32,000 nucleotides of DNA from Schaalia odontolytica (GCF_005696695.1 NZ_CP040006.1:750001-782000), one strand, 5' to 3'. Counted from the stretch's first letter, positions 2,870 to 30,364 are shown. Notes: a model not told the origin generated them from the letters alone. Translations and numbers: made by a program.

Positions 2870-3107
2870 TATGCGCGTTGTGTATGCGTTTTGTTTGCGC
2901 CGCCGGCGGGAGCCAGGTGCGGTTCCGGCGGCGAGCAGAAACGGCCTTCAGTCACCGGCACTGTCCGCCCTTTGCTGCTTCCTCCGGTGGCTAGGGGGAA
3001 CATGCGCAGTGAGGAGCGAACCACTCTCGCAGCGTATCCTGGTACCTGTTGGCGCGCGGGTGCGTCCCGGTGCGCGCAGACTGATTCGTCGATACGAAAG
3101 AGGTCCC

Positions 3108-3992
3108 ATGTCCCTCCAGATGCGTCTCGTTCACGCCCGCAAGGGGCTCACGCCTCCCGCGCTGCACACCGAGGAAGCCGCGCGTGAGATGGCGGCGGGT
3201 GCCCCGCAGCAGCACCCCATGCCTGCGTCGATGCGAGCGCGTTTCACGGCAACATGCGATAAAGGCGTGACCCGCGTGCTACCGAAGCAGGGCCTGCGCT
3301 CGGGCGGCGCTCTCATCTTCTTGCATGGCGGTGCCTACCTCTTCCCGCTGGTTGACGGCCAATGGGGCATCGTCGAGGGCCTCATCGACCGCACCGGCCT
3401 GCCCGTCATCATTCCGGACTATCCGCTCGCCCCCGAACACACCGCTGCAGAAGCGTTCGACTTCGTCCAGCCCATCATCGACGAGGCGCAGGCCGAGTTC
3501 GGTCGCGTCATCATCTTTGGTGACTCGGCGGGTGGCGGCCTGGCGCTGTCCCTCGCCATGCAGCGACGCGACGCGGGTACGCGTCAGGTGGACGGCCTCG
3601 TCCTGTACGCCCCGTGGGTGGACGTCACCATGACGAACCCGGCGATCGAGGAGATGCAGCGCCGCGACAAGATCCTGCGCGTGCCCGGGCTGGCGTGGGC
3701 GGGCCGCGCGTGGGCTGGCGAGCTGGACCCGGCCGACTGGCGCGTCAGCCCCCTGTACGGTGACCCAGCGGGCCTGCCGCCGATACGCGTCTTCCAGGGG
3801 GACGCGGACATCGTCGGCCCCGACGTGATCGAGTTCGCGCGCAAGGCCGCTCGCGCTGGCGTGGACGTGCGCCTGCGCGTGGAGCCGGATGGCTTCCACG
3901 TGTATGTCCTGGGCGTTCCCACCATTCCCGAGGCTGAGGCCGCCCTCGACCACAGCGCGCGCTTCATCTCGGGGATCCTCACCCAGGCGTGA
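3108..3992 (+). CDS. Alpha/beta hydrolase, Abhydrolase_3 (hormone-sensitive-lipase-like esterase) family
   Basis: Track ORF 2871..3992. I prefer ATG 3108 (MSLQMRL...), preceded by AAGAGG, because the longer N-terminus overlaps the terminator region. Motifs present are the HGGAY oxyanion block, GDSAGG nucleophile elbow and C-terminal DGFHVY. Confidence 0.8.
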   Translation: MSLQMRLVHARKGLTPPALHTEEAAREMAAGAPQQHPMPASMRARFTATCDKGVTRVLPKQGLRSGGALIFLHGGAYLFPLVDGQWGIVEGLIDRTGLPVIIPDYPLAPEHTAAEAFDFVQPIIDEAQAEFGRVIIFGDSAGGGLALSLAMQRRDAGTRQVDGLVLYAPWVDVTMTNPAIEEMQRRDKILRVPGLAWAGRAWAGELDPADWRVSPLYGDPAGLPPIRVFQGDADIVGPDVIEFARKAARAGVDVRLRVEPDGFHVYVLGVPTIPEAEAALDHSARFISGILTQA

Positions 3993-4152
3993 GACGACCC
4001 GTTTCACGCGTCGTTGATCGAGGACGACGGTTGCAGGTAACCCCGCGTCGCCCGGTACCGATACGACTAGTCGAGGCTCGCACACCAGGGGTCGGCTGGG
4101 CGAGGGAGGCGCACGCCAATGGCACACTGCCGCGTGGCGGGAGGATGTGGCC

Positions 4153-4854
4153 TCAGTCGATGCGCGCCTCGACGATGGACCACGTGTGGGGGTAGACCTC
4201 CATGGTCATGGAGGCGGACCCGGAGCGCCGAGCGCAGGCCTCGTAGAGGACGCCCGTGAGACCGCCGCGCGAGGCGATGTCGCCCGCATTGTCTGTTGAG
4301 ATGACCGTGGCGCGCTTGGTGCCGTCAGCGAGGGTCATCGTGAAGGTGTTGTCCCATCCGTTGTCGGGCGTACGATCGGCGCGCGTCCCCGGGTTTGATC
4401 GTGGCATCTGCTCGAAGCTGCACGAGGTGACGGTGACGGTGGTGGTGCCCTCCTTCAGGTCGCGGAAGGCGGGCAGGCCGCGGCTGATTGACTGGAATCC
4501 CACGAATAATGCGGTGACGCACAGGACGACGATGCCGAAGGAACGCTGGTTGTATCTCTCGATATCGACGTCGCGCTTGGCGCGCCGAACACCGAGGTAC
4601 GCGAACGCGCACGCGATGAGGAGCCCGGCGACGAGGACGAGCCCAACGCCGCAGGCCTGCGCTTTCCACACGACGCGATCGCGGCCGAAATCTGTGTGAT
4701 CTCCGATGAACCAGAAGAGGGCGATGGCAGCAATGACCAGAGCCACGAGGACGGCCCCGATGGAGGTGGCGATCTTCTTGAGGACGCCTGCGCCTGTCGA
4801 GCCTTGCGCGGGCGAGGAAGCCCGACGAGGAGAGGAAGCGGGGTTGCGTGACAT
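4153..4854 (-). CDS. Array paralog 1: membrane protein of unknown family (3 TM helices plus two-Cys C-terminal domain)
   Basis: Track ORF 4153..4920. I prefer ATG 4854 (MSRNPASS...), preceded by GAAAGGGA. It has three hydrophobic helices and a DFGRDRVVW loop motif. The C-terminal domain reads TVTVTSCSF...FTMTLADGT...LYEACARRSG.ASMTMEVYPHTWSIVEARID and is shared with four neighbours. Confidence 0.7.
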   Translation of the reverse strand: MSRNPASSPRRASSPAQGSTGAGVLKKIATSIGAVLVALVIAAIALFWFIGDHTDFGRDRVVWKAQACGVGLVLVAGLLIACAFAYLGVRRAKRDVDIERYNQRSFGIVVLCVTALFVGFQSISRGLPAFRDLKEGTTTVTVTSCSFEQMPRSNPGTRADRTPDNGWDNTFTMTLADGTKRATVISTDNAGDIASRGGLTGVLYEACARRSGSASMTMEVYPHTWSIVEARID

Positions 4855-4933
4855 GGGTTCCCTTTCGGGTCGCAGAGGTTGGGGAAGAGGTCGGGGCACT
4901 AGCGCAGGCCTCCTGGGCATGTCGGCCGAGCAA

Positions 4934-5803
4934 TCAGTTGTTGATCCTCGCGGTCGCGACGACCCTCGAGTGCGTGTAGTAATCGATGGTCATGGTCGCG
5001 TTGCCGGAGCGCAGGGCGCAGGCCTCGTAGAGGACGGCTGTCACGTCCCCTTGCCTCGCAATCTCATCCTTGCTGTCCGTCTCAACGGTCTGCGTGTGGG
5101 TCGAGCCATCCTCAAACGTCATGATGAACTGGTTCTTATACACGGTCGAGACGCCGCTGCGGTAGCGTGACCGACTCGTCTTGTACTGGTCGAAGCTGCA
5201 TGACGTGACCGTGACAGTGTGTGGGCCGTCGGCGACGTCAAGCACCGCGGGAACGCCGTTCGACAGCGCGTAAATGGCGAATCCGAAGCCAAAGACACCG
5301 ACCATGCCCAGGCCGAGCTGGCGTTGTTGTGCCACTTTCTCGTCGCCCTGTGCGCTCGCTATGAGGTAGTTGCGCCGCGTAGCGGCATAGAGGGGAATCA
5401 TGGCGAGGGCGAAGACGAGTGCAACGGCGCACTTGATGAGGGTCCAGACGATCCGTTCCGTGCCGAAGTCGAACATTTCGCCGAAGAAATAGAAGACCAT
5501 GCCGACGAGGAGACCCACGAGCGCGAGCAGAAGCCACCACCCCGTGTGCTTCTTCGGTGCCTTGCCCTCGCCGGAAGGATCGGTGGGGGAAGGAACACTC
5601 TGAGAGGCTGCATCAGTGTCTGACGATGCGGCGTACGCCTCCCCGTATGGGGACCCCTGGAATGCCCAACCCTGGTACGACAGCGGTGGCCAGGAAGACT
5701 GCGTGTCGCCCGCTTGCGGCTGCGGCACCTGCGGCTGGTTGGCGGGTTGACTGCCGTCAGTGGACGGATCGAAAGGCGACGGATAAGGATACTGATTGCT
5801 CAT
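4934..5803 (-). CDS. Array paralog 2: same unknown family, Pro/Gln/Ser-rich N-terminal tail
   Basis: 289 aa. The tail reads MSNQYPYPSPFDPSTDGSQPANQPQVPQPQ.... It has three TM helices and a DFGTERIVW motif. The C-terminal domain reads TVTVTSCSFDQ...FIMTFEDGS...LYEACALRSGNATMTIDYYTHSRVVATARINN. Confidence 0.75.
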   Translation of the reverse strand: MSNQYPYPSPFDPSTDGSQPANQPQVPQPQAGDTQSSWPPLSYQGWAFQGSPYGEAYAASSDTDAASQSVPSPTDPSGEGKAPKKHTGWWLLLALVGLLVGMVFYFFGEMFDFGTERIVWTLIKCAVALVFALAMIPLYAATRRNYLIASAQGDEKVAQQRQLGLGMVGVFGFGFAIYALSNGVPAVLDVADGPHTVTVTSCSFDQYKTSRSRYRSGVSTVYKNQFIMTFEDGSTHTQTVETDSKDEIARQGDVTAVLYEACALRSGNATMTIDYYTHSRVVATARINN

Positions 5804-5975
5804 GGCTGCTGCCTGTCGGACGGGTGCATGATGACGAGCCTAGGGCCTCTCCACAGGATCGGGTGAGGTTCCGGGAGAATCCCGGTGTGCGGTTGCGACC
5901 AGGCACCGACTTGCTCGTCACTCTTCACAGTACCGCTCACGGCCTCGATGAGGGCGCACATCTCACCCATGCGAC

Positions 5976-6164
5976 GTGGGCATCTTGGGCCCAGACGCGA
6001 TCGAGTTCGCCCGCAAGGCGGCACGCGCTGGCGTCGACGTGCGCCTGCGCGTGGAGCCGGACGGCTTCCACGTCTACGTGCTCTCAGTCCCCGTTATTCC
6101 CGAGGCCGAGGCCGCCCTCGACCACAGCGCGCGCTTCATCTCGGGGATTCTCACCCAGCCGTGA
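5976..6164 (+). pseudogene. Relic copy of the last ~60 codons of the 3108..3992 esterase gene
   Basis: The ORF translation ILGPDAIEFARKAARAGVDVRLRVEPDGFHVYVLSVPVIPEAEAALDHSARFISGILTQP compares with the esterase C-terminus IVGPDVIEFARKAARAGVDVRLRVEPDGFHVYVLGVPTIPEAEAALDHSARFISGILTQA. DNA similarity continues past the stop (gtgag.cgacccgtttcacgc...gatcgagg) to about 6207. No upstream catalytic part is present. Confidence 0.8.
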
Positions 6165-6256
6165 GCCGACCCGTTTCACGCCCCGTTTCACGGCCTCGCT
6201 GATCGAGGGCAAGAAGCCGCCGATGAGTACGTGCGTCGAAGTGACGGCGAGCCTCG

Positions 6257-6925
6257 TCAATCCAGCCTTGCTTGATCGATGATCCACGAGTAGTAGTAGA
6301 CGTCAAGTGTCATCGAAGTTGTCCCTGGATTCTTGATGCAAGCACTGTACAGGACTTCGTCGATGCGTCGGTCATCGAGAAATACGCGGCTATCGATGAC
6401 TGTCTGACGGGTGGTTCCATCGGCCAGGGTCATGATGAAGTGATAGTCAGCGACGGACATGGTTCGGTAGCGTCCATGTCGTTCTCGGCGCGAAACAATT
6501 TCGCGTGTGCACGATGAAACGGTCACTGTCTGCGGACCGGTGAAGAGATCGAAGACGACACGCGTCCCGTAACCTAGAGCGTTGTAGGCGCTTGGAATCA
6601 GAATAAGCACCGGTATCACGAGAGCTGTGGCTCGTTTGTGCAAGCCCATTGCAGTGCCAGCTCTCTCGCGCTTGTCGAACCATTGAAACAAGTAGGAAAT
6701 GGCGGCGATGCATGCGAGCATGATGAGAAACGCTGTGCCGTAGGAGAAAGTCAGCCAGCGGAACCGCGCGGGGCCATGAGGGGAAATTGTGTCTGCCAAA
6801 TGGCCCAAACCATACAAGATGAGAGTGAGGACGATCCAGAACGCTGTCCCATAGCGCTTCTGCTCTTTCGTCAGCGAACTTGTTGGGGATTGGGGTGTGG
6901 TAGACGTGTTCTTACGCTTGCTCAT
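6257..6925 (-). CDS. Array paralog 3: same unknown family, short N-terminal tail
   Basis: 222 aa with three TM helices. The C-terminal domain reads TVTVSSCTRE...FIMTLADGTTRQTVID...LYSACIKNPGTTSMTLDVYYYSWIIDQARLD. GC content is noticeably lower than in flanking core genes. Confidence 0.7.
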   Translation of the reverse strand: MSKRKNTSTTPQSPTSSLTKEQKRYGTAFWIVLTLILYGLGHLADTISPHGPARFRWLTFSYGTAFLIMLACIAAISYLFQWFDKRERAGTAMGLHKRATALVIPVLILIPSAYNALGYGTRVVFDLFTGPQTVTVSSCTREIVSRRERHGRYRTMSVADYHFIMTLADGTTRQTVIDSRVFLDDRRIDEVLYSACIKNPGTTSMTLDVYYYSWIIDQARLD

Positions 6926-6960
6926 GGGGGCTTCAATGGTGGTACTGCGGGTAGCGGTGC

Positions 6961-7239
6961 TCAGTCGCGTTCTTTGCGGTGCCGACGTGGCCTATGCGAG
7001 TCTCGTATAGCGAAACCGATTGAATAATAGATGGCACATCCAATGATCCCGCTCAGGATAATAGCCGCGCAGATGGGGATGATGACGGGAACGGCGATGG
7101 GTGACATGCGTGCGAATTGGATGATCATCCAGCACACAATTGCGGTGAGGCTCCCCGCCGCTACCGCGATGGCAGTGCGCGAGATATGGGGTTCATCAAC
7201 GGAGGGTTGATCGGGGGAGAGAGGCGCTTCGTTGCTCAT
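6961..7239 (-). CDS. Small polytopic membrane protein (92 aa), possibly a truncated array member
   Basis: The sequence is MSNEAPLSPDQPSVDEPH..., then hydrophobic stretches (AIAVAAGSLTAIVCWMIIQF, SPIAVPVIIPICAAIILSGIIGCAIYYSIGFAI) and a basic C-terminus. The MSN-type start resembles paralogs 2 and 4. It lacks the two-Cys domain. No obvious RBS is present. Confidence 0.45.
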   Translation of the reverse strand: MSNEAPLSPDQPSVDEPHISRTAIAVAAGSLTAIVCWMIIQFARMSPIAVPVIIPICAAIILSGIIGCAIYYSIGFAIRDSHRPRRHRKERD

Positions 7240-7436
7240 AAAAACCGTTTCAGCTGGGACGGAGACGGACGAGGCTGTTTATTCCATGTCACTGCCCACC
7301 TGCATAGGTAGCGTGGTGTGGATTGAAGGCGGGGAGTTTTTCGGTGATGGTGTCTCAGTGGTGCCGTGTGGCCTCGTGACGACGAGGCTCGGGCTGGGCG
7401 GGCGCCCCCACCTCGTCGGTGAGAAAACGCAGCATC

Positions 7437-8270
7437 CTACTCAACCCGCGCGTTGACGATGATCCAGCTGTGGCGATAGACCTCAAGTGTCAGAGGTGAG
7501 GCCCCCTTCTTGTCAGCGCACGCTTCGTAGAGGGTGTTGTAGACACCGGTCGCGTCGTAGGCGGTGCTCAAGCGAGTCGTGTGCTTCGAGCCGTCGGTGA
7601 GGGTGAGATCGAACCTGTAGGACGTAGAGGTGCCTCTCCGTCGCGAGCGCATTCGGAGTTCACTGTAGCTGCACGACTTGACGGTGACGGTCTGTGTTCC
7701 TTCGATCGTGTCCGCAACCGACTGCACGGAACCAATGACCGCCATCGTTCCGACGATGAGGACGGGGATGGAGAGAACCACGAGCCAGACGATTGGCTGA
7801 CGCATGTTCGTCCTGTCGCCAGCGCGCTTCGCTCGGTTCATACGGAGAGCCGTCATGACAATGATGACCGCACAGATGAGCATACTGATGGTGCCCACGG
7901 CGCTCGCGATGCTTTGCCACGTGAGTTTGATGTCGCCCACGTCGTAGAAATTGCTCAGCACAAAATAGGCAACGACACCGCTGAACGTGAGGAACTTCAG
8001 GACGTTGAGCACCGTCGCGTAGTTCGTGTTCATGACCGGACGGCCCACGTTGCCCAGTCCATGCGGCTGCATTGGGACCTGGCCCGGGAAGGGCTGCTGA
8101 GGATACATGCCGCCCTGGTATTGGCCGGGCTGCGGCTGCATCGGGACCTGGCCCGGGAAGGGCTGCTGAGGATACATGCCGCCCTGGTACTGGCCGGGTT
8201 GCGGCTGCATCGGGACCTGGCCCGGGAAGGGCTGCTGAGGAGGATAACCGTGGGGGTATTGGTTGCTCAT
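7437..8270 (-). CDS. Array paralog 4: same unknown family, N-terminal tail built from 23-aa PQ-rich tandem repeats
   Basis: 277 aa. The tail reads MSNQYPHGYPPQQPFPGQVPMQPQPGQYQGGMYPQQPFPGQVPMQPQPGQYQGGMYPQQPFPGQVPMQPHG. It has three TM helices. The C-terminal domain reads TVTVKSCSYSE...FDLTLTDGSKHTT...LYEACADKKGASPLTLEVYRHSWIIVNARVE. Confidence 0.75.
   Translation of the reverse strand: MSNQYPHGYPPQQPFPGQVPMQPQPGQYQGGMYPQQPFPGQVPMQPQPGQYQGGMYPQQPFPGQVPMQPHGLGNVGRPVMNTNYATVLNVLKFLTFSGVVAYFVLSNFYDVGDIKLTWQSIASAVGTISMLICAVIIVMTALRMNRAKRAGDRTNMRQPIVWLVVLSIPVLIVGTMAVIGSVQSVADTIEGTQTVTVKSCSYSELRMRSRRRGTSTSYRFDLTLTDGSKHTTRLSTAYDATGVYNTLYEACADKKGASPLTLEVYRHSWIIVNARVE
8062..8243. repeat. 69-bp tandem repeat, about 2.6 copies, in frame inside paralog 4
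   Basis: The string tgcggctgcat(t/c)gggacctggcccgggaagggctgctgaggatacatgccgccctggta(t/c)tggccggg(c/t) recurs with starts at 8062, 8131 and 8200. The period is exactly 69 nt, or 23 codons. Copies differ at only a few positions. Confidence 0.9.
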
Positions 8271-8426
8271 GGTGTCTCGCTGGTCAGTGGGGTGGTGTCC
8301 TCGTACGGAGGCTAGCTCAATGTTGGGCGTGCACCGACAATACTACGGGTGCGCGTGAGCGTGGGGGCACATGGCCGAGAGGTGATGATGAGTCGGCAGA
8401 GGTATTCGTTCATGGACAGGTACTCG

Positions 8427-9434
8427 CTAGACGATGCGCGCGTCAGCGATGATCTGCGTGCGCGGATACAGGTCGAGGACCAGTTTCTTCGATGAGGGGT
8501 GGTGCGACAAGCATCCGTTGTAGAGGGTGCCGCGGATGCCCGATGCCAACTGCAAGTCGTCCTGCTTTTCTGTTTTGATGACGAGGACAAGCTTGCTCTT
8601 GTCGCCGAGTGTCATGTTGAATTCGTTCTGATAGCTGCTCGGGATGGTGTTTGTTGGTGAGCTCTTCACCGGACTTTGGTAGAAGTAACACGAGGCGACT
8701 GTCCTGGTCTGGGGTCCTTCGTTGAGGTCGCGTGCTGCCGGCACTGCGTTGCTGATCGCGATGACTGCGGCGGCAAGTCCGACGAGGCAGATGAGGGCAT
8801 ACCCGGACGCCCGAGTTTCGGCCGTCTCGTTCTCGCCTTCTGTGAACAAGATGCGCGCGTAGCGCACTGTGGTGGGGACAAAGGGAATACACAAACCTGC
8901 GGCTGCGAGCCCGAACAGGCATGCGGCGAACTGCCATTGAAGTTTGCCCGTGCCGAAATCGTTGGCTTGGGCCATTGTGATGCTCGTGAAAAACAGCGCG
9001 GCGATCACAACTGCGAGACCCGCGAACACGTCGGTGCTAATCGGGAGGGTGAAGGCCTTCGTGGACTCGTCCTCGCGTGTGGGACTGTCCTGAGGGTCTG
9101 AGCCTGTCGACGTCGCGTGAGGGCGTGCAGTGGTGGGCGACGATGAACGATCCTGCTGCGCAGCGGTTGAAGGGGAGGCGGCGCGGGGTGCAGGCGCCGT
9201 CGGCTCGCTGTCCGCATGCGCCTCGGAGATGTACGGGGGCGGGTCCGCGTTGGGTTTTTCTTCCTCGGTGTGAGGGGTGGAAACTCCGTATGGGAACGCG
9301 GGATCCGGCCCGTCTGCGGAGGGCTCAACGGGCACCGGCGCGTTGCGTGGCACCCGGTGCGCAGCCTCCACGTTCTCCTCGGGCAGTGCGGGTTCCGACC
9401 CGGTCGGCGGCGCGTATGGATTGTTACTGCTCAT
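8427..9434 (-). CDS. Array paralog 5: same unknown family, ~140-aa Pro/Ser/Thr/Ala/Glu-rich N-terminal tail
   Basis: 335 aa. The tail reads MSSNNPYAPPTGSEPALPEEN... and looks disordered. It has three TM helices and a NDFGTGKLQW motif. The C-terminal domain reads TRTVASCYFYQ...FNMTLGDKS...LYNGCLSHHPSSKKLVLDLYPRTQIIADARIV. Its ATG lies 9 nt after the upstream SGNH stop. Confidence 0.75.
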   Translation of the reverse strand: MSSNNPYAPPTGSEPALPEENVEAAHRVPRNAPVPVEPSADGPDPAFPYGVSTPHTEEEKPNADPPPYISEAHADSEPTAPAPRAASPSTAAQQDRSSSPTTARPHATSTGSDPQDSPTREDESTKAFTLPISTDVFAGLAVVIAALFFTSITMAQANDFGTGKLQWQFAACLFGLAAAGLCIPFVPTTVRYARILFTEGENETAETRASGYALICLVGLAAAVIAISNAVPAARDLNEGPQTRTVASCYFYQSPVKSSPTNTIPSSYQNEFNMTLGDKSKLVLVIKTEKQDDLQLASGIRGTLYNGCLSHHPSSKKLVLDLYPRTQIIADARIV

Positions 9435-9443
9435 GCCGGGATA

Positions 9444-10046
9444 CTACACGTCCGCCGGGGTCGCTCCCGTCCACTCGTACCAGCCCTGGTGCTGGACGAT
9501 CCAGGCCATGAGGGCGTACCCAGCCTGGCCGGGCAGGGTTTGCCCGTCCGCGCCTCGCGCCAGGGAGGCGGCCATGTCCTCGAACCACTGGTCGTGCGCG
9601 ACCAGAGGCGTGTAGCAGTCGACGAAGGGGATGCCTCGGCGCGCGCACACCTCGGAGCATGAGGAGGACAGCGCCTTCAGTGAACCGGAGTCCACGCCAG
9701 CGAGCGGTGGGGGACCCACGACGAAGCTGGGGATGCCCAGAGCGGTCGCCCGGTCGGTGATGTTGGCCAGGTTCAGGCGCGAGCGGGCCGTCGAAATGCC
9801 GGCCGCGACGTCGCCAGGGCCCACACCGATGACGAGGCCGTGGGGCTCGCCCTCGGCCAGGCGCGGCAGGACCTCGGCCTCCCAGCGCGCAGCCATCTGC
9901 TTCGTCGTCTCTGAGGGTACGGCGAGGGTCAGGAACGTGGCGGGCAGATCGAAGGTGGAGTGCGCGTTGACGCGACCGACCCAGCCCAGGCCTCGGGGGT
10001 CGCCGACTCCTGCGACGAGCTCGTCTCCGATGAAGCAGATCCGCAT
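9444..10046 (-). CDS. SGNH/GDSL-like hydrolase family protein with non-canonical block I (GDE instead of GDS)
   Basis: 200 aa. The N-terminus MRICFIGDELVAGVGDPRGLGWVGRV matches the layout of actinobacterial GDSL-type esterase family proteins. The RBS is GAAAGGA. The gene lies 51 nt downstream of kgd. The family call rests on the N-terminal block only. Confidence 0.6.
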   Translation of the reverse strand: MRICFIGDELVAGVGDPRGLGWVGRVNAHSTFDLPATFLTLAVPSETTKQMAARWEAEVLPRLAEGEPHGLVIGVGPGDVAAGISTARSRLNLANITDRATALGIPSFVVGPPPLAGVDSGSLKALSSSCSEVCARRGIPFVDCYTPLVAHDQWFEDMAASLARGADGQTLPGQAGYALMAWIVQHQGWYEWTGATPADV

Positions 10047-28255: not shown

Positions 28256-28284
28256 TTGTTGTTACTGACAAACTCTAGGATGAT
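28256..28284 (+). promoter_or_regulatory. Candidate sigma-70-type promoter of S8 peptidase 1 (TTGTTG-N17-GATGAT)
   Basis: The same architecture occurs at the same distance (~59 nt leader) upstream of the paralogous S8 gene. Both share TGACAAACT in the spacer and an identical RBS region GAAAGTCGAGGAACCATGCGCCG. Confidence 0.4.
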
Positions 28285-28342
28285 GGACGCAGCTGTGAAT
28301 GCAGTCGAAATCCTGATAGTGACAATCGAAAGTCGAGGAACC

Positions 28343-30364
28343 ATGCGCCGCACTGCCGCACGCATCGGCGTCGTCGCCGCTCTCGCCCTGTCCATGGGCG
28401 TGGCCGCGGTGAACGCCCCCTCCGCCCGTGCTGAGGAGCCCGGACTCGTCTCCGCCGCCCGCGCCGACACCGACGAGATGAACTACGCGATCAACCTCGC
28501 GGGCACGAACCCCGAGGACCTCCAGCGGGCCCTCGCCCTCGTCCCCGGAGCCGGTGGCGCCGCCCTGGCCTCGTACCCGGAGATTGGTACCTTCTTCGCG
28601 CAGAGCGCCACGCCCTCGTTCGCGCCCGACCTGGCCGCCGCCCTGCGACAGGCCGGCATCTCCATCCACTCGATCGGCCCGACGCGCGTGGCCCCTGTCC
28701 TCTACTACGAGCGCGTCGAGCTGCCCACCGACAAGAAGGACGAGGCCCCCGCCCCGCAGTCGGGAGCGGCAGGCGGCCTGAATTCCATGCGCGATGAGAC
28801 CGCGAGCGCCGCTCCCGCTGAAGCGAACGAGGAGATCTTCAACTGGGGCGCCGTCGCCATGCACGCGCGCGAGGCCGAGGCAGTCAACGTCAAGCGCGCC
28901 CCCGTCACCGTCGCGGTCGTGGACTCCGGCGTCGAGGACACGCATCCGGACCTGGAGGGGCGCGTCGATACGTCGCGTTCCGTGAAGTGCTCGGTGAACG
29001 GCGTTGCCACGCAGGACTTCTATGGGTGGCGCGATGAGTTCTACCACGGCACGCACGTCGCGGGCATTATCGCGGCTAACCATAACGACATTGGTATCGA
29101 CGGCATCGCCCCTGAAGCGACCATCGTTGCCATTCAGGCGACCAATGACAACCGCCTCATTTACCCCGAGTACGTGACCTGTGCGTTCATGTGGGCGGCG
29201 AGCCACGGGGTGGACATCGTGAATAACTCCTACTCGATGGACCCGTGGGTCTACTGGAGCCCGACCGACCCGGAGCAGGCTGCGGGCCTCGAGGCGGCCA
29301 CGCGGTCGATCAAGTACGCGCAGGACAAGGGACTGGCCGTCATCGCGGCGGCCGGCAATGAGGGCGTCGATATCGACAATCCGTGGATCGACAACGGATC
29401 ACCGACCGACGTTCCCACGCCGACGAAGAATCGCGCGGTGGAAGGCAGTATCCGCGTTCCCTCCATGCTCGACGGCGTCGCCCAGGTGAGCGCGGTCGGT
29501 CAGGCGTACAACGTGAAGCCGGGCCTGTCCCTGGGCCGCGCCGAGTTCTCCAACTACGGTCGCACGATTGATTTTGCCGCCCCGGGCGACCAGATCTACT
29601 CCACGGCCACGACGCTCTTCTACCGCAGCGGCTACGCGGTCGCCGACGGCACCTCCATGGCGACCCCGCACGTGTCGGGCGTCGCGGCCCTCATCAAGTC
29701 GGTGCACCCGGAGCTCACGGGCGCCCAGGTCATCAAGGTGATGGAGAGGCAGGCTGAGGCTAATTACGGACGCCTCAATGAGCCGATCGACGGCAGGGAG
29801 TACCGAGGCTACGGCTTCCTCGATGCGCTCGATGCGGTGACGGATGATCTGGGACGGTTCGACGAGGCCATGGCTGGTGAGTGGGTCAAGGATGCCACAG
29901 GCTGGTGGTACTACTACGAGGACGGAACCTACCCGGCCTCGACCTCGATTCAGATCCGCGGGGAGACCTTCCGCTTCGATGCACGCGGCTACATGGTGAC
30001 CGGATGGGTGCTTGACGGTGGCCGGTGGTTCTACCACGAGGCCTCGGGGGCCCAGGTATTGGGCTGGGCCAACGTGAATGGCACCTGGTACTACCTGGAA
30101 CCCCCCACGGGTGCGATGGTGACCGGTTGGGCTTATGTCGATGATGCCTGGTACTACTTGAGCGCTTCGGGTGCGATGGTGACCGGTTGGGCTTACGTCG
30201 ATGGTGCCTGGTACTACCTCACGCCCTCCGGCGCGATGGCAATTGGCTGGTTGAACGACGGTGGGTCCTGGTACTACCTGGACGTGTCCGGTGCGATGGT
30301 CACCGGCACTCGGCAGGTGGATGGTGTGACCTACACCTTCGGCCCGGACGGTCGCATGCAGTAG
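28343..30364 (+). CDS. Secreted S8 (subtilisin-family) serine peptidase with C-terminal cell-wall-binding repeats
   Basis: Track ORF 28256..30364. I prefer ATG 28343, preceded by GAGGAA. The signal peptide is MRRTAARIGVVAALALSMGVAAVNAPSARA. The catalytic triad blocks are VAVVDSGV (Asp), HGTHVAGIIAA (His) and GTSMATPHVSGVAAL (Ser). The C-terminus carries GW..(D/N)G.WYY...SGAM.TGW repeats. Confidence 0.88.
   Translation: MRRTAARIGVVAALALSMGVAAVNAPSARAEEPGLVSAARADTDEMNYAINLAGTNPEDLQRALALVPGAGGAALASYPEIGTFFAQSATPSFAPDLAAALRQAGISIHSIGPTRVAPVLYYERVELPTDKKDEAPAPQSGAAGGLNSMRDETASAAPAEANEEIFNWGAVAMHAREAEAVNVKRAPVTVAVVDSGVEDTHPDLEGRVDTSRSVKCSVNGVATQDFYGWRDEFYHGTHVAGIIAANHNDIGIDGIAPEATIVAIQATNDNRLIYPEYVTCAFMWAASHGVDIVNNSYSMDPWVYWSPTDPEQAAGLEAATRSIKYAQDKGLAVIAAAGNEGVDIDNPWIDNGSPTDVPTPTKNRAVEGSIRVPSMLDGVAQVSAVGQAYNVKPGLSLGRAEFSNYGRTIDFAAPGDQIYSTATTLFYRSGYAVADGTSMATPHVSGVAALIKSVHPELTGAQVIKVMERQAEANYGRLNEPIDGREYRGYGFLDALDAVTDDLGRFDEAMAGEWVKDATGWWYYYEDGTYPASTSIQIRGETFRFDARGYMVTGWVLDGGRWFYHEASGAQVLGWANVNGTWYYLEPPTGAMVTGWAYVDDAWYYLSASGAMVTGWAYVDGAWYYLTPSGAMAIGWLNDGGSWYYLDVSGAMVTGTRQVDGVTYTFGPDGRMQ
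29876..30361 (+). repeat. About 7-8 tandem ~20-aa cell-wall-binding (choline-binding / CW_binding_1-like) repeats, coding
   Basis: The repeat region reads GEWVKDATGWWYYYEDGTY..., GWVLDGGRWFYHEASGAQVLGWANVNGTWYYLEPPTGAMVTGWAYVDDAWYYLSASGAMVTGWAYVDGAWYYLTPSGAMAIGWLNDGGSWYYLDVSGAMVTGTRQVDGVTYTFGPDGRM. Two adjacent 60-nt units near 30110..30230 are almost identical at the DNA level. Confidence 0.85.

Follow-up and report, generated by a model that had tools for sequence, protein, structure and literature searches.

Background

Small envelope proteins encoded in polymorphic tandem arrays are a familiar genomic feature. In Gram-positive bacteria, the immunity arrays against type VII toxins, e.g., those of TsaI (DUF443) and EsaG (DUF600) in Staphylococcus aureus, and the orphan immunity islands are built from co-directional divergent paralogs of small lineage-restricted families, which vary in copy number between strains, evolve under relaxed constraint, and are membrane-anchored if the toxin acts on the envelope. 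In this study, we analyzed a stretch of 32,000 nt from Schaalia odontolytica (GCF_005696695.1, NZ_CP040006.1:750001-782000; hereafter the window), in which five genes on the minus strand, located between positions 4153 and 9434, show a comparable arrangement. Very probably, their products are small inner-membrane proteins that form an orphan family restricted to one lineage, an assessment that covers their architecture, their genomic site, and the variability of the array. As in polymorphic toxin-immunity arrays, strain-variable tandem divergent paralogs are present, with 1–8 copies from at least 17 orthogroups between conserved flanks. In contrast, the Schaalia array is embedded between housekeeping genes and apparently co-transcribed with them, revealed no similarity to the immunity arrays at the sequence or profile level, and has no toxin or secretion genes nearby at 19 further copies of the locus. 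New here are the protein family, its ectodomain, and the housekeeping-embedded location.

At the protein level, short NfeD proteins such as YuaF combine a hydrophobic N-terminal region with a C-terminal oligonucleotide/oligosaccharide-binding (OB) fold domain, a barrel that is thought to be cytoplasmic. They share the gross plan of the Schaalia proteins, i.e., three predicted transmembrane (TM) helices followed by a small C-terminal OB-type barrel, but the Schaalia barrel is predicted to lie outside and carries a cysteine pair. NfeD was matched neither by Pfam (E ≤ 1 for the five proteins, and also in 22 C-terminal domains) nor among the 50 matches listed per Foldseek run against the PDB. Likewise, no NfeD-type SPFH/stomatin (Band_7) neighbor was found among the scanned open reading frames (ORFs) or the Pfam matches of two loci from a more distant species (L024 and L025); Kgd, a GDSL-like protein, Abhydrolase_3, and CNNM are the neighbors of the array. 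Extracytoplasmic OB domains, e.g., AB5 B subunits such as PltB, CcmE, and YgiW-type BOF proteins, have the same strand order, the outside location, and the concentration of variability in loops in common with the Schaalia domain, a resemblance at the level of topology only (TM-score 0.2–0.3) without shared motifs, PltB being a weak Foldseek match.

The best Foldseek neighbors of the ectodomain, DUF1093/YxeA (3npp) and 3rd4, are likewise small envelope-associated beta-barrel domains of about 80–100 aa, but these matches are not significant (E = 0.05–0.3, root-mean-square deviation (rmsd) 5–8 Å, 5–10% identity). The Pfam model of DUF1093 had no match at E ≤ 10 in the 22 C-terminal domains, and proteins of these types have not been reported with a three-helix anchor, a cysteine pair, or a tandem polymorphic array. 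Finally, DUF3592 proteins, of which an earlier note on this DNA had been loosely reminded, also carry a small beta-rich domain on TM helices. Pfam lent this likeness no support (E ≤ 1 for the five proteins, E ≤ 10 for the 22 C-terminal domains), and the domain order differs, the Schaalia proteins having three N-terminal helices and then the C-terminal domain.

Five divergent paralogs of one architecture

ORF calling on the window returned five same-strand genes, named P1 to P5, with exactly the coordinates given in the earlier note:

4153..4854, minus strand: P1, 233 aa, orthogroup OG02 (near-core); C-terminal domain 4156-4464; NCBI WP_060566625.1
4934..5803, minus strand: P2, 289 aa, orthogroup OG01; C-terminal domain 4937-5242, AlphaFold2 predicted local distance difference test (pLDDT) 90.8
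6257..6925, minus strand: P3, 222 aa, accessory orthogroup OG11; C-terminal domain 6260-6553
7437..8270, minus strand: P4, 277 aa, accessory orthogroup OG06; C-terminal domain 7440-7715
8427..9434, minus strand: P5, 335 aa, accessory orthogroup OG10; C-terminal domain 8430-8732; tail of about 130 aa

NCBI lists proteins of the same lengths, each as a 'hypothetical protein' of Schaalia odontolytica (FBF35_03270-03295; also KSW10977-80). All five start with MS and have an N-terminal tail, which ranges from about 25 aa in P1 to about 135 aa (in P2 about 82 aa, rich in Pro, Gln, and Ser), followed by three hydrophobic segments and a C-terminal domain of 92–103 aa. The loop behind the first TM helix carries a motif in the forms DFGRDRVVW, DFGTERIVW, DVGDIKLTW, and DFGTGKLQW, as described before, and additionally as the variant PHGPARFRW in P3. 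Identity among the five proteins is 28–36% (29–34% in a full-length alignment to P1). Their alignment revealed 23 invariant columns, including both cysteines, the Gly and Trp of loop 1, a D...G that opens the C-terminal domain, and an Ala-Arg pair located 1–3 residues before the stop. A hidden Markov model (HMM) of the family scored P1 to P5 at E = 1e-66 to 1e-88 (P1, 9e-75). Judged by their sequences, the similarity is far beyond chance, and P1 to P5 are ancient, divergent paralogs. Thus, the one architecture and the high divergence of the copies that had been read from the DNA both held.

Predicted membrane topology and fold

For the topology, lysine and arginine residues (K+R) in the 15 residues flanking TM1 and TM3 and in the loops were counted in 97 full-length copies from 18 genomes. 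The mean was 7.6 on the N-flank plus loop 2 vs 2.6 on loop 1 plus the C-flank, and the inside sum was the larger one in 97/97 copies, indicating an N-in, C-out orientation; loop 2 alone averaged 5.0 and the 15 residues after TM3 1.0. A natural in-frame fusion found on many contigs (P0128, 331 aa) joins a two-TM module to a P3-type paralog by an Arg-rich linker, which places the N-terminal tail on the cytoplasmic side. The two cysteine columns of the C-terminal domain, one in strand beta1 and one in the helix, are filled in 97/97 and 96/97 copies, the sole gap being a truncated sequence, so that the pair is invariant as claimed before. Based on the positive-inside counts, the P0128 fusion, and the invariant cysteines, we predict an extracytoplasmic location of the domain and consider a disulfide plausible; the pair presumably forms one. 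As a prediction only, this side would fit the disulfide-bonded exported proteins of Actinobacteria, i.e., the MdbA/DsbA substrate class, and would make the family a candidate substrate of the actinobacterial oxidative folding pathway. While the extracytoplasmic location proposed in the earlier note is thus also predicted here, its wording 'surface-exposed' goes too far, since the domain would adjoin the membrane and be covered by the cell wall. The N-terminal tail is predicted to be cytoplasmic and disordered, is rich in Pro, Gln, Ser, and Tyr, and measures about 13–130 aa across the family, with no conserved motif except MSNQ(Y/N)P, which was found in 5 of 17 orthogroups.

AlphaFold2 alignments were shallow (20 sequences), but two different targets agree. 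The model of the P1 core (mean pLDDT 89.3, predicted TM-score (pTM) 0.76) shows helices at residues 3–26, 33–69, and 73–110. Since TM2 and TM3 comprise about 37 residues each, they must project past the membrane on the cytoplasmic side and would, according to the model, form a basic helical hairpin there. DSSP assigned the ectodomain of this model strands 113–126, 142–150, and 155–162, helix 173–184, and strands 191–196 and 201–207, with a low-confidence loop behind the first strand. The C-terminal domain of P2 modeled alone (pLDDT 90.8, pTM 0.78) revealed the same order of elements, namely strands 10–27, 33–45, and 50–57, helix 69–79, and strands 86–91 and 96–102. The modeled order beta1-beta2-beta3-alpha-beta4-beta5 corresponds to an OB-like topology of about 100 aa directly after TM3.

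Foldseek searches with the full-length and C-terminal domain models against the PDB and BFVD resulted in nothing at E < 1e-3. The best neighbor was 3rd4, the uncharacterized Proteus protein PROPEN_03304 (TM-score 0.50/0.60, E = 0.17, probability 0.95), followed by weak matches to DUF1093/YxeA (3npp; E = 0.046 and 0.32, probability 0.80 and 0.60, TM-score 0.32–0.37, rmsd about 7 Å) and then to the OB proteins SSB, Pot1, PltB, proteasomal Rpt, and PrgE, which were matched only at E = 0.1–0.9 and TM-scores of 0.2–0.35.

Conserved positions of the ectodomain are core or structural ones, and no conserved constellation of catalytic type was detected. Among 17 orthogroup representatives, entropy was lowest in the strands (1.4–1.8 bits) and within the ectodomain peaked in loops L12 and L3-alpha (2.5–2.6 bits), values to which those of the TM helices and membrane loops are comparable (2.4–2.7 bits). 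L12 is net positive in 66/97 copies, and the net charge of the C-terminal domain ranges from -6 to +3 by orthogroup.

A family restricted to Schaalia and its relatives

Searches of P1 to P5 and of S92, a small protein encoded between P3 and P4, against Pfam, NCBIfam, PADLOC, and PHROGs yielded only sub-threshold matches in the TM region, with no match at E ≤ 0.01 in PADLOC and PHROGs. When 22 diverse C-terminal domains were scanned singly against Pfam at E ≤ 10, no family recurred, and a sequence profile of 20 members retrieved from the PDB only matches due to TM composition. The family had been called unrecognized, and so it proved, since no cut-off was passed in the four family databases and no relative was found in the PDB by profile or fold (E < 1e-3). 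When 1.84 billion cluster representatives were searched exhaustively with HMMER, only 61 clusters passed E ≤ 1e-3, all of them belonging to the Schaalia/Actinomyces odontolyticus group and about 25 being full length; nearly all 61 correspond to orthogroups of the one locus next to kgd and the GDSL-like gene. Altogether, hundreds of database members exist; all named ones are 'hypothetical proteins' of Schaalia, Actinomyces, or Actinomycetaceae, and all divergent members were found either at the same site or on short oral metagenome contigs beside more paralogs. By tblastn, the family was not found in 50,697 phage or 72,556 plasmid records, IMG/VR gave no family match either, and a phage, plasmid, or viral origin was rejected on this basis. 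A literature search that included accessions in supplements found no mention of the array locus.

Three long proteins matched in the HMMER search, P0165, P0167, and P0174, were rejected as homologs, being recognized as Ig-like adhesin repeats that match a single hairpin, 'F-x-V/M-T-L-x-D-G-S/T', many times. In the metagenomic protein P0137 (222 aa), a serine-recombinase-like C-terminal part is followed, precisely from the domain boundary on, by the P4 ectodomain. This is probably an assembly chimera that arose via a short common 'EGTQTVTV'-like stretch, the alternative being an insertion event.

Variable gene content between conserved flanks

The genome scan was seeded with P2 peptides, so only genomes with an OG01-like gene were recoverable. 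It led to 17 species-level loci (L001-L017), which together with L024 and L025 from a more distant species (Kgd 93% identical) make up the 19 further loci, compared with their neighborhoods of ±10 kb. In all of them the order is constant: CNNM, Kgd, the GDSL-like gene, the array, and a convergent alpha/beta-hydrolase gene. Boundaries of the array in the window, assigned by Pfam and synteny, are as follows:

9444..10046, minus strand: GDSL/SGNH-like protein, 200 aa, upstream boundary
2871..3992, plus strand: alpha/beta-hydrolase (Abhydrolase_3), convergent, downstream boundary

Across the loci, identity of the flanks amounts to 93–100% for Kgd and the GDSL-like protein and 75–95% for the hydrolase. 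Between these, the array holds 1–8 full-length copies depending on the genome, and clustering at 65% identity resulted in at least 17 orthogroups. OG01 (P2) was present in 18/18 and OG02 (P1) in 16/18 genomes of the close clade, while OG11 (P3) was found in 4/18. The other orthogroups, as well as OG11, OG06, and OG10, occur in varied combinations of presence and absence with conserved relative order. In the distant species, the OG01 slot is occupied by a paralog of only 44% identity, and OG02 is missing. The variability of the array lies in its gene content, and the locus is among the places in the clade where a polymorphism of this kind is most distinct while the surrounding chromosome is otherwise nearly identical. 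Content differs between close species by segmental duplication, deletion, and recombination between paralogs. Locus L015 (4830-6420), from a gut-derived metagenome-assembled genome, retains one OG01 copy and a remnant of 54 aa and also lacks the alpha/beta-hydrolase gene; most of the array is therefore dispensable.

The GDSL-like protein is 94.5–100% identical across genomes, with a ratio of non-synonymous to synonymous substitution rates (dN/dS) of 0.018. In the window, 9 nt separate its stop from the start of P5, and in the inspected loci the first array gene begins a few to about 20 nt past this stop. Together with kgd and the GDSL-like gene, the latter being its probable operon partner, the array apparently forms one operon-like run and would be co-transcribed. 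A signal peptide is absent from the GDSL-like protein, and its block I, where GDS is usual, has the sequence FIGDELVAG. The nucleophilic Ser thus seems to be replaced by Glu, and from its sequence the protein may be a non-hydrolytic one with an SGNH fold. The only mobile-element gene near any copy of the locus, a Transposase_mut gene (L024:15882-17231, minus strand), lies about 2 kb past the alpha/beta-hydrolase gene.

Selection on the array genes

Within orthogroups, dN/dS (Nei-Gojobori) was 0.24–0.55 overall and usually lowest in the C-terminal domain (0.15–0.36 in 9/11 orthogroups). The flanks revealed 0.018 for the GDSL-like protein and 0.070 for Kgd at a similar dS of about 0.2–0.3. As the values of the array genes lie between those of the flanks and 1, these genes are functional and under relaxed constraint, and the intact orthologs in at least 18 genomes with dN/dS < 1 settled in their favor the check for decaying ORFs that the earlier note had suggested. 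Pooled per structural element, dN/dS was highest in L12 (0.73) and lowest in the beta4-beta5 turn (0.17) and the helix (0.23). No value above 1 was obtained for a whole orthogroup or a pooled element, and the only higher values came from two orthogroups represented by few pairs, in short, low-complexity stretches of the N-terminal tail or the TM region. The diversity reflects old paralogy together with gain and loss, while ongoing positive selection has no support from dN/dS; the diversifying selection proposed before could therefore not be upheld at the sequence level.

Gene remnants, repeats, and accessory genes

Traces of turnover were found in and around the arrays, e.g., internally deleted remnants in which HMM positions 1-44 are joined to 201-232. 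In the window, the gap of 453 nt between P3 and P2 contains gene remnants, and further elements were located here and between P3 and P4:

5804..5969, minus strand: conserved non-coding stretch upstream of P2, about 80–95% identical elsewhere (blastn against the loci)
5884..5976, minus strand: remnant of about 93 nt, 3' end of an accessory gene type of 236 aa that is intact inside the arrays of other genomes
5973..6208, plus strand: pseudo-copy of the hydrolase 3' end (last 170 nt or so plus downstream DNA, about 240 nt), source about 3820-4030
6961..7239, minus strand: S92, ORF of 92 aa with two TM helices and a strongly basic C-terminus, unannotated by NCBI

The non-coding stretch probably serves the OG01-OG02 pair as promoter or 5' region. 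The hydrolase pseudo-copy is 85% identical to its source over a repeat of 116 nt (source 3900-4015) and is common to many genomes, upstream of OG01, so that it would represent an old segmental duplication or insertion scar.

S92 accompanies OG11 in 4/4 genomes with this orthogroup and is 96–99% conserved. By BLASTP, it matched the N-terminus of P0128 (E = 5e-14). Its TM helices align weakly with the TM2-TM3 region of the family (E = 0.026), so S92 may derive from a truncated paralog. GC content at third codon positions is 0.63 in P3 and S92, compared to 0.74–0.82 in the other paralogs and 0.86–0.92 in the flanks, and the GC profile of the window falls to 0.58 across 6–8 kb. This points to a cassette that was acquired more recently or to weaker codon selection.

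Repeat-number changes were found as well. The cytoplasmic tail of P4 contains three tandem repeats of 69 nt (8062-8268), each unit encoding 23 Pro/Gln-rich aa, and its 90% cluster comprises forms of 277, 254, and 231 aa with three, two, and one repeat units. The orthogroup of the P0135 cluster changes in length from 244 to 286 aa in steps of 6 aa.

A second gene family, to which the remnant at 5884..5976 belongs, resides inside other arrays. Its products of 236–258 aa have two TM helices, a Pro-rich linker, and a conserved C-terminal domain of about 120 aa:

L009:1694-2404, plus strand: member of the accessory family of 236–258 aa
L024:7259-8035 and 8251-8961, plus strand: two further members; the family was also found in L005, L006, L011, L012, L013, and L016

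There was no Pfam match for this accessory family, and a profile search of the PDB was empty. It is lineage-restricted, its named members all being a 'hypothetical protein' of Schaalia or Actinomyces. A likeness of the C-terminal domain of the 236-aa protein to histidine-kinase ATPases was unsupported by Pfam and the PDB profile search, and homology of its two-TM part to S92 and P0128 was marginal only (E = 0.02).

Possible functions of the array

Since no conserved residues of catalytic type were detected and the paralogs differ mainly in two exposed loops, L12 and L3-alpha, and in net charge, each protein can be read as a membrane-anchored binding module. Specificity would then reside in these two loops and in surface charge. 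As a repertoire of such specificities, the array would intercept, on the outer side of the membrane, antagonists that act on the envelope, e.g., toxins or bacteriocins that competing strains secrete or deliver by contact, or components of phages or epibionts. The widely retained OG01 could provide baseline protection, and the accessory cassettes strain-specific protection. Among known behaviors, that of an orphan immunity or decoy array fits best; we propose such a polymorphic repertoire of binding modules only tentatively, ligand binding and protection being what we infer. If true, the proteins would represent a new family that protects Actinomycetota at the level of the envelope and would offer a handle on strain competition in the oral microbiome. 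A broader version, in which this host-encoded, strain-variable envelope repertoire decides which antagonists act on a strain, be it the toxins of competitors, phages at the step of the membrane, or epibionts of the Saccharibacteria such as TM7x, seems improbable to us. The tractable host of an epibiont would then possess membrane-anchored, OB-like determinants of immunity or specificity that form a class of their own, new and without relation to known families.

Several observations weigh against an immunity or decoy repertoire. In the window and at the 19 further loci (±10 kb), no toxin gene, toxin C-terminal fragment, secretion system, or phage was found in or beside the array, and no mobile element lies in or adjoins the array at the 19 further loci. 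Apart from remnants of the family, the fragment of the hydrolase gene, S92, and the accessory 236-aa type, the gaps were empty. No structural element exceeded a dN/dS of 1, even L12 remaining at 0.73, so there is no signal of an arms race, and Pfam, NCBIfam, and PADLOC revealed no similarity to a known immunity or defense family. Furthermore, a three-helix anchor and long cytoplasmic tails exceed the needs of a simple immunity protein, and the tight coupling to the GDSL-like gene together with at least one copy kept in every genome would also suit an endogenous role in the envelope.

According to such an endogenous role, the ligands of the ectodomains would be components of the cell itself, namely its wall glycopolymer, lipoglycan, or lipid-linked precursors, and the proteins would act as adaptors or chaperones together with the GDSL-like protein, the paralogs being sub-functionalized or redundant. 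Extracytoplasmic OB folds often bind oligosaccharides, and the predominantly positive L12 (66/97 copies) could suit anionic wall polymers. The start of the array within a few to about 20 nt of an extremely conserved gene points in the same direction, as do the one or more copies that every genome examined has kept and the nearest family of neighboring folds, since YxeA-type (DUF1093) genes sit in envelope-stress and antimicrobial-peptide regulons (PMC10269926). However, copy number varies from 1 to 8, most orthogroups are dispensable in some genome, and dN/dS is 5–20 times that of the flanks. Moreover, the family is confined to one small clade, while wall synthesis is universal, and for a GDSL-like protein without signal peptide and with GDE in place of the nucleophilic Ser an extracytoplasmic partnership is not obvious. 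We therefore regard an envelope role as rather unlikely; if true, it would be a clade-specific feature of wall or membrane organization. Whether the array is a repertoire of binding modules or serves the envelope, the family merits a name and a domain model.

Instead of defenses, the proteins could be targets, i.e., membrane receptors exploited by phages at the step of DNA injection or by Saccharibacteria, with gain and loss as escape. The host species would fit, as the array proteins are identical to KSW/QCT records of S. odontolytica and the KSW accessions are those tabulated in a TM7x transcriptome study for strain XH001, the model host of TM7x, from which the window probably derives, and so would the presence/absence polymorphism at a fixed site and variable loops that are predicted to face outward. 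On the other hand, published work ties both adsorption of phage LC001 and attachment of TM7x to cell-wall polysaccharide without mentioning the array locus, which lowered our estimate. For a target, loss would be expected rather than multiplication to 5–8 copies, the domain lies under the wall, and dN/dS never exceeds 1, so that we consider this explanation quite unlikely.

A role in signaling or scaffolding, in which the ectodomain would sense an external cue and the repeat-bearing tail would recruit a cytoplasmic partner, with S92 and the 236-aa type as co-components, could account for the long cytoplasmic tails with their repeat-number polymorphism and for the TM2-TM3 hairpin that reaches into the cytoplasm in the model. 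It would also agree with the fusion of S92 to a paralog in a relative and with a second lineage-specific membrane gene family inside the arrays. Yet no component has a recognizable output or signaling domain, the tails share no motif beyond MSNQ(Y/N)P (5/17 orthogroups), and no regulator gene is adjacent, which leaves this reading with little probability.

It is very improbable that the topology is reversed, with a cytoplasmic OB-like domain that would, e.g., bind nucleic acids via a basic L12 and a Pro-rich tail spanning the wall outside. An OB fold with a basic loop (net positive in 66/97) is the classical nucleic-acid-binding combination, and Pro-rich repeats resemble wall-spanning regions of Gram-positive surface proteins. 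However, K+R of 5.0 in loop 2 vs 1.0 after TM3 favored N-in in 97/97 copies, no signal peptide was found that could export tails of up to 130 aa, the cysteine pair is invariant while no other metal ligands are conserved, and the P0128 linker is Arg-rich. That the genes are decaying or spurious, functionless ORFs of a high-GC genome, as the weak Shine-Dalgarno sequences upstream of several copies, the remnants and pseudogene fragments, and a dN/dS above flank values could suggest, is effectively refuted by intact orthologs in at least 18 genomes with dN/dS 0.24–0.55, structural residues invariant across paralogs of 25–45% identity, confident and consistent fold predictions, and hundreds of database members.

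Orphan multigene families are common; nonetheless, the Schaalia array resides in a tractable host for work on Saccharibacteria and phages. S. odontolytica is a model host for TM7x and phage LC001, for which allelic exchange and a saturated transposon library exist (PMC12369343, PMC11032452). For strain XH001, a phosphocholine-decorated wall polysaccharide has been described, and a peptidase and a cell-wall-binding protein are reported to be among the genes most repressed by TM7x (PMC11032452; bioRxiv 10.1101/2024.11.25.624915). Apart from the array, the window encodes at 28256-30364 (plus strand) a subtilase (Peptidase_S8) with C-terminal choline-binding repeats.

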